This document shows, in pieces, positions 34,036-35,713 of a stretch of 64,000 nucleotides of DNA (positions are counted from its first letter, which is position 1; each line of letters starts with the position of its first letter). Position numbers and translations under genes: made by a program. The stretch comes from Planctomycetaceae bacterium (GTDB taxonomy: Bacteria > Planctomycetota > Planctomycetia > Planctomycetales > Planctomycetaceae), in the NCBI GenBank assembly GCA_020638955.1, contig JACKHO010000007.1, positions 246,745 through 310,744 of the forward strand, in the 5' to 3' direction. The notes under the pieces were generated by a model. It worked only from the letters and a program-made list of their open reading frames with translations. It was not told the DNA's origin and did not search any database.

Positions 34036-35713
34036 ATGCGTTCGATTCTTCTGTCTGCCATTGCTGCCCTGTCTGCGACTGCTGTTCTCGCTGACGAGCG
34101 TCCCAACATTCTGTATATCATGTCCGATGACCATGCCGCGCATGCGATTTCGGCGTATGGGAGTCGGCTGGCGGAAGTTGCTCCGACGCCGAACATCGAC
34201 AGGCTGGCGAAAGAGGGGGCGTTGTTCACGAATGCCTTTTGTACGAATTCGATTTGTTCGCCTTCGAGAGCGTGCGTGCTGACCGGGCAGTACAACCACG
34301 TCAACGGCGCGTTCGATTTGGCAGGAAGTGTCGGCCCCGGTAAACAAATGCTGGCCATTCAAATGCGAAAGGCGGGATATCAGACCGCCATGATTGGGAA
34401 GTGGCATTTGAAAGAGGAACCGGCCGACTTCGATTACTACTGCGTGCTGCCGGGCCAGGGGAAATACCACGATCCGGAGTTTCGGGTTCGGGGTGAGAAG
34501 CCCGCGGGGGAAGAACCTCATTCAGTTCGACAATAAGCACGTCACCGACGCAATCACGGACCTCTCACTTGCGTGGCTGAAAGAACATCGCGATTCCAGC
34601 AAGCCGTTCTTCCTCATGCACCACTTCAAAGCGCCACACGACTACTTCGACAATGCGCCGCGCTATGAATCGTACCTCGCCGATGTCGACATCCCGGAGC
34701 CACCTTCACTGTGGGAACGGAGTGAGCAGTTTGGCTCTATCGCCACGCGCGGAGCCAATGATGAACTCATCCCGCACATTGGGACGTCGATTGGTGCTCG
34801 CAATCCCCGGCGGTCTTACCTCGGTGATTTGCCAGCGCTGTATCCCGCCGAGTTTCCGGAGAACTTTGATCCTGCGAATTTCAGCGACGAAGAAAACACG
34901 CGGCTGGCCTACAACGCTTACCTGAAGAAGTTCCTACGATGTGTGAAAGGGATTGATGACAACCTCGGTCGGCTGTTTGCCTACCTCGACGAGACCGGGC
35001 AAATGGACAATACGCTCATCATTTATACCGCCGATCAGGGATTCATGTTGGGCGAGCACGACTATCAGGACAAACGCTGGATGTACGAGGAATCGCAGCG
35101 CATGCCGTTTCTGGTGCGGTATCCCAAGGCCATTGAGGCAGGTCAGAAGTTTGACACCCTCATCGAGAATGTGGACTACGGTCCCACCATGCTGGAATTT
35201 GCTGGTGCGGAAATTCCAGCGTCGGTGCAGGGACGTTCGTTCAAATCATTGCTCGAAACCGGCAAGGAAGCGCAGGACTGGAAGCAGGAAGCGTACTACC
35301 GCTACTGGATGCATATGGTGCACCACGACAATCCCGGCCATGTCGGCATTCGCACGAAAACCCACAAACTCATCTACTACTACGGATGCAACTACGACGG
35401 CGGCTACCAGACACCACCCGGCTGGGAGCTGTATGACCTGGTAAATGATCCTCACGAAACCCGCAATATATACGACGATCCGCAATCGACAGCACTCGTC
35501 AACGCCCTGAAGAAGCAACTCGCGGACGCCCGCCAACGCGTCGGAGACGACGGCTCGCATTACCCCGCCTGTGAAGCCATCGTTCAAGAATTCTGGGACT
35601 ACGACGAAGCCGACCGTAAGAAGGCCGAACAGATTTCACACGAGTATCTGCAGCGCCGACTTGGTGAATTGAAAGAGGGAAACAAGAACGTGCAAACGCA
35701 CAAGGGGAAGTAG
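34036..35713 (+). pseudogene. Cys-type sulfatase with a +1 frameshift in a G5 homopolymer (34506-34510).
   Basis: ORFs 34036..34536 and 34493..35713 are consecutive parts of one sulfatase (ILYIMSDDHAAH, CSPSRACVLTG in the first part; the rest of the fold in the second). Removing one G gives the continuous ...GEKPAGKNLIQFDNKHV.... Confidence 0.8.

Follow-up and report, generated by a model that had tools for sequence, protein, structure and literature searches.

Why is one sulfatase gene written in two reading frames, and which bases broke it? In a stretch of 64,000 nucleotides from an uncultured Planctomycetaceae bacterium, referred to here as the window, a conserved S1_11-like sulfatase gene is divided between two overlapping open reading frames on the forward strand, and the frame changes beside a run of five Gs. 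The comparisons described below make it very likely that the split is a genuine and very recent loss-of-function mutation in this gene. The mutation altered the codon next to the G run and left the run itself untouched.

Two halves of one sulfatase

The two ORFs, already described in the original prediction and listed in Table 1, overlap by 44 nt in different frames. The N-terminal ORF holds a hydrophobic leader, which would be a signal peptide, followed by the metal-binding D31/D32, the formylglycine (FGly) motif, which in full reads CSPSRACVLTG, and K122/H124; from there it runs out of frame for nine codons and ends at the TAA of 34534-34536. In the C-terminal ORF, homology starts again at Gly158/Lys159, at about position 34508. 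This ORF has neither leader peptide nor FGly motif and contains the second half of the catalytic domain, an SGSH_C domain and a conserved tail of about 40 amino acids. The Pfam Sulfatase profile matched the N-terminal fragment with an E value of 2.9e-24 and the C-terminal fragment with an E value of 1.3e-25, and the SGSH_C match of the latter had an E value of 2.4e-49. Since the first third of the Sulfatase profile falls in the N-terminal ORF, and positions 143-300 together with SGSH_C fall in the C-terminal ORF, the two are halves of one sulfatase. The claim that a single Cys-type sulfatase is split at this place is therefore supported by the complementary domain content.

Table 1. Features of the split sulfatase gene, in window coordinates
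Feature	Position	Strand	Basis or description
Whole sulfatase pseudogene	34036..35713	+	Minus one base, a 558-aa S1-type, S1_11-like sulfatase
N-terminal fragment ORF, 166 aa	34036..34536	+	Pfam Sulfatase profile positions 1-104 of 301
Cys-type formylglycine motif C74-S-P-S-R78 (TGT TCG CCT TCG AGA)	34255..34269	+	Direct sequence reading
C-terminal fragment ORF, 406 aa from first GTG	34493..35713	+	Pfam Sulfatase 143-300 and SGSH_C 1-153
Lesion, CCGT -> CCCGC (one extra base and T-to-C)	34501..34505	+	MAFFT/BLAST against L001 and L002
G5 run GGGGG, ancestral, length unchanged, not the mutated element	34506..34510	+	L001/L002 read TGGGGGA; TGGGGG in 12 intact orthologs

When one base within the overlap is removed, the result is a 558-aa protein, and over 100 full-length orthologs, 548-607 aa long, are colinear with it. 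With one G deleted the protein reads ...RGEKPAGKNLIQFDNKHV..., and the restoration of this sequence, as originally proposed, holds up against the full-length orthologs. In the ortholog alignment (A1), C74, P76 and R78 are invariant, and D31, D32, K122, H124, H196, D333, Q334 and K346, the metal and sulfate ligands, also stand in invariant columns. The match to PF00884, the C/S-x-P-x-R motif and the conserved ligands are those of a Type I (S1) sulfatase, and the frame across the catalytic domain is interrupted. Because the frame is broken at codon 157, the gene is a pseudogene of the S1 family and no functional member of it, and the enzyme can safely be regarded as inactive. The C-terminal tail, residues 518-558 (35587..35710), is conserved across the aligned Planctomycetota orthologs with the consensus EFWDYDEADR..A..ISH.YL.RR..EL..G..N..T..G, and goes beyond the solved S1_11 homologues, which align only as far as residue 517.

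The solved structures closest to the repaired protein are 7LHA/7LJ2 (BuS1_11, E 5.3e-163), followed by 7SNJ/7SNO ('Arylsulfatase') and 5G2V; the top match, 7LHA, is an S1_11 enzyme. Based on 7LHA/7LJ2 and 5G2V as the best solved relatives, the gene is an S1_11-like carbohydrate 6-O-sulfatase. The enzyme would have been periplasmic or secreted, with a 6-sulfated sugar as its probable substrate. Some database sources call the orthologs 'N-acetylglucosamine-6-sulfatase', a name transferred by similarity.

The orthologs are unusually well conserved. The repaired protein shares 95% amino acid identity with P0001, a protein from a Planctomycetaceae metagenome-assembled genome (MAG), 94% with that of L002, which was the best among the matches listed in a genome-collection scan, and about 80% with full-length orthologs across Planctomycetota genera; identities in Verrucomicrobiota MAGs are 62-76%. 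The scan kept 80 loci among the matches listed, and the window's own species is not in those 80. None of the 81 homologous loci listed is split at this site, each having one in-frame tblastn segment over residues 140-175. Split orthologs, which the original prediction had named as a finding that would speak against it, were thus not what we found.

The altered Trp157 codon and the adjoining G run

Then, which bases were changed? The G run is flanked by C on one side and A on the other. From the sequence alone, the frame can be restored by deletion of any single base in 34501-34510, and a placement of the change in the G run on that ground is therefore a guess. The closest intact orthologs were compared at the DNA level: L001 (GCA_020426225.1), 94.9% identical to the window over 2815 nt, and L002 (MAG ABC1.128), 88% identical within the gene. 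Both orthologs are in frame and read GAG-RAR-CCG-TGG-GGG-AAG-AAC, five Gs included, whereas the frameshifted gene of the window reads GAG-AAG-CCC-GCG-GGG-GAA-GAA-C. MAFFT and BLAST agreed on one gap, in CC-/CCC, followed two bases later by a T/C mismatch, and this gap is the sole indel of the coding region against L001 and against L002. By this comparison the lesion lies 1-5 nt upstream of the G5 run, at the Pro156/Trp157 codons, where it destroys the TGG codon of Trp157 and shifts the reading frame by +1. Should the immediate ancestor's codon have been the synonymous CCC, the lesion would instead be T -> GC; under either derivation the T of the Trp157 codon is altered and the G run is not. 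An account by an extra G would require three further substitutions. Nor does any single-base repair restore Trp157, as deletion of a G gives Ala and deletion of a C gives Arg. In the window the site context is CCCGCGGGGG, of which CCGTGGGGG is an in-frame version.

The residue lost is a highly conserved one. Among the 39 orthologous loci in which the motif could be read, residue 157 is Trp in 38 and Phe in one, and the solved 7LHA and 7SNJ, also homologues, have its equivalent too. The string TGGGGG occurs exactly in 12 of the 39 motif-matched intact orthologs, which shows that intact genes commonly and stably have five Gs at this place. The original placement of a +1 indel in the G5 run does not agree with these results: the five Gs are also present in the intact L001 and L002, and the change from CCGT to CCCGC lies upstream of them.

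The same comparison bears on the idea, also raised originally, that slipped-strand variation in the length of the G5 run (or of the C3 run) reversibly switches the sulfatase on and off. The two frames do overlap around a homopolymer, and planctomycetes are rich in sulfatase paralogues, three of which lie in the window, so that a switchable one is conceivable. However, the G5 run is equally long in the closest intact orthologs, and slippage cannot produce the base substitution that forms part of the change; a frame restored by slippage would still be without Trp157. Homopolymer slippage becomes frequent from roughly 7-8 nt, and phase-variation tracts are longer than 5 nt. Runs of 5 nt are ordinary in this DNA, with 27 G5 and 30 C5 runs (57) in the window. 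The indel does not lie inside the tract, the tract is not unusually long, and its length is the same in the window and in a second assembly, GCA_020426185.1, with which the window agrees exactly. We regard phase variation as extremely unlikely.

Could the ribosome correct the frame? A +1 shift on G GGG G, in which tRNA-Gly moves from 34507-34509 to 34508-34510, would produce a full-length W157A enzyme reading ...KPAGKNLIQ..., and the GGG-G sequence, as read, would let the P-site tRNA pair again without mismatch in the +1 frame. Against such recoding, no frame change at residues 140-175 occurs in any of the 81 homologous loci listed, so that the site is not conserved as a shift site; the local RNA has no stable structure (fold against shuffled sequence, z = +0.57); the next codon is GAA, with no slow or stop codon after the site; and the conserved Trp would still be absent from the product. 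The chance that the gene is expressed by programmed recoding appears to be very small.

The mutated CCCGCGGG, at 34501..34508, forms a perfect 8-bp palindrome containing CCGCGG, whereas the ancestral CCGTGGG is not palindromic. The palindrome CCCGCGGG is probably coincidental. An origin from a quasi-palindrome by template switching was rejected, as both arms would have to change and a loopless hairpin is implausible. Gene conversion from a paralogue was rejected as well, since the 22-mer at the lesion has no second copy in the window with up to 3 mismatches allowed.

The second assembly and the age of the break

Is the extra base present in the organism, or only in the assembly? Under the second alternative, a sequencing or assembly (consensus/polishing) error would have left the gene intact in the bacterium. 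The source is evidently a MAG, the only identical match is a MAG too, and the context CCCGCGGGGG is GC-rich and palindromic, a kind of context in which sequence-specific errors are known. When the neighbouring DUF1697 protein was looked up, it pointed to contig JAGQQN010000195.1 (GCA_020426185.1), which is 100% identical to window positions 30620..41789, that is, over 11,170 bases with the frameshift included. In the gene list of this contig the sulfatase interval has no product, which would fit annotation as a pseudogene. GCA_020426185.1 is distinct from the source of the window: its contigs are shorter and end inside the window, and one stretch for which the window gives bases is there a scaffold gap filled with Ns. 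Yet over 25 kb of overlap the two do not differ by any isolated 1-nt indel, and among the window's approximately 55 ORFs no other split gene was found. Five ORF pairs that overlap on the same strand were considered as split genes and proved to be distinct genes with unrelated domains. Since there are no isolated indels and no other split gene, neither assembly looks prone to indel errors. Moreover, an insertion with a neighbouring substitution is no plain miscall of homopolymer length, and, as noted, no one-base repair restores Trp157. The two assemblies may stem from the same or related samples, in which case their agreement would not be independent. Taken together, the identical second assembly weakens the error explanation offered in the original prediction, which we consider unlikely although it keeps some probability.

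The remainder of the gene carries a record of selection. On the window-specific branch, with L002 as outgroup, there are 21 synonymous and 4 non-synonymous codon changes, codon 157 being among the 4. If a column counts as conserved when at least 11 of the other 12 sequences share a residue, the repaired protein has one private deviation at conserved columns, at residue 157, as compared with 4-15 per intact ortholog. The 21 synonymous against 4 non-synonymous changes and the lone deviation at residue 157 indicate that purifying selection acted over essentially the whole branch and that the inactivation is very recent. An undamaged remainder would be equally expected of an assembly error in a functional gene. 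The sulfatase inactivated in a young pseudogene, which was one of the outcomes first proposed, is nevertheless the reading supported by the frame break, its presence in the second assembly and the otherwise undamaged gene.

A young break might still segregate in the population. It is very unlikely, in our estimate, that broken and intact alleles coexist, with this otherwise near-universal planctomycete sulfatase lost or toggled at the strain level, or that a little full-length W157A enzyme is made through spontaneous +1 slippage on G-GGG-G, which is chemically possible. Two metagenome scans, the first tolerant of gaps of differing length at the lesion and the second built on a conserved 48-nt anchor that the window and L001 have in common, returned no further copy of the population's allele, intact or broken. 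The 166-aa N-terminal fragment as an exact product is not on record in public assemblies.

The overlap with GCA_020426185.1 showed one divergent tract. At window positions 17853-18632, within the sulfatase gene 17658..19370 (+), there are about 60 mismatches to the GCA_020426185.1 contig L084, many of them spaced by 3 nt, and a compensating pair of 1-nt gaps; the other approximately 24 kb of overlap is identical. The tract looks like a divergent allele in a paralogous sulfatase, either from strain-level recombination or from the assembler's choice of haplotype. The contigs of GCA_020426185.1 end at 29240..30619 and from 41790 onward. As the window continues through these breaks, it is the more contiguous assembly of the same population.

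The split gene stands alone, with a minus-strand gene for a 302-aa membrane-protein-like product on one side and a DUF1697 gene on the other. The downstream DUF1697 neighbour is shared with P0001/L001, and L002 has upstream genes of 704 aa and 220 aa as in the window. The immediate upstream region (33872..34095), only about 220 nt in the window, differs in all three relatives: in L001 (1616-3175) an MR_MLE gene and a further sulfatase of 479 aa are found there, and in L002 (4207-6059) a TPR protein of 521 aa is encoded on the other strand. The 5' end of the sulfatase gene is a rearrangement hotspot. Within L001, positions 3300-3510 (ortholog codons 45-112) hold 11 of the 12 L001-specific amino acid changes, several of them multi-nucleotide, and L001 and the window have zero amino acid differences after codon 218. 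This distribution suggests that the N-terminal segment of L001 may be mosaic or recombinant.

Two further regions of the window were recorded. At 12350..14582 (-), an IS1595-family transposase ORF (12350..13315; DDE_Tnp_IS1595 and Zn_ribbon_IS1595) overlaps the end of a sensor-kinase ORF (13251..14582; MASE3 and HisKA), which stops just past HisKA without HATPase_c. The sensor-kinase gene may have been truncated by an IS insertion. No terminal inverted repeats of the IS1595-family element were found, and the next ORF downstream of the transposase, 11421..12047, has no Pfam match. The 956 nt at 36361..37316, between the DUF1697 gene and a DUF2971-like gene, contain no ORF of at least 90 aa; GCA_020426185.1 likewise lists no gene at this place, and the first approximately 550 nt are about 95% conserved with L001.

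The probable pseudogene and its known relatives

How would the mutation have acted? In the genuine loss-of-function mutation that we favor, a small complex change at codons 156-157 would have converted the ancestral CCG TGG to CCC GCG G, adding one base and changing the T of Trp157, with the adjoining G5 run as an unchanged bystander. Translation from the normal start would run out of frame past Ala157 and reach the stop nine codons later. The predicted product would be a 166-aa stub with the leader and the formylglycine motif, and would be without the second half of the alkaline-phosphatase-type fold. Neither leader nor catalytic nucleophile is encoded in the 400 codons downstream.

The locus should be labelled as a frameshifted S1_11-like sulfatase pseudogene and counted neither as a pair of sulfatase genes nor as phase-variable. 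A frame change beside a homopolymer suggests slippage or a homopolymer error; here the nearest orthologs showed the run untouched and the neighbouring codon altered. For the turnover of sulfatase repertoires, the fresh loss of a well-conserved sulfatase in a single lineage adds one small data point. The locus is an ordinary, very young frameshift pseudogene and matters little beyond annotation.

Two kinds of known systems invite comparison. The likeness to phase-variable contingency genes, as in Campylobacter, Neisseria and Haemophilus, is superficial and consists in the frame change beside a G run. In contrast to those genes, the tract of the window is too short and constant in length, and the change lies outside the run and comes with a substitution. 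The characterised sulfatases offer the closer parallel. 7LHA is the SulfAtlas S1_11 exo-6-sulfo-L-galactose (porphyran) sulfatase BuS1_11 of Bacteroides uniformis NP1 (PMC9096561). Residues 18-517 of the repaired protein align to chain residues 21-529 of BuS1_11 (7LHA/7LJ2), and the two have in common the C-x-P-x-R formylglycine motif and the metal- and sulfate-binding residues. BuS1_11 also has a Trp matching Trp157 (KEWPKN, against KPWGKN), whereas that Trp is lost in the frameshifted gene of the window. The N-acetylglucosamine-6-sulfatase 5G2V has the same fold and a subfamily-level similarity (E 5.8e-107, residues 21-500), and is more distant from the repaired protein than 7LHA. The window's gene lies outside any obvious polysaccharide-utilisation cluster, and the C-terminal tail conserved in the planctomycete clade is absent from the solved proteins, BuS1_11 included.
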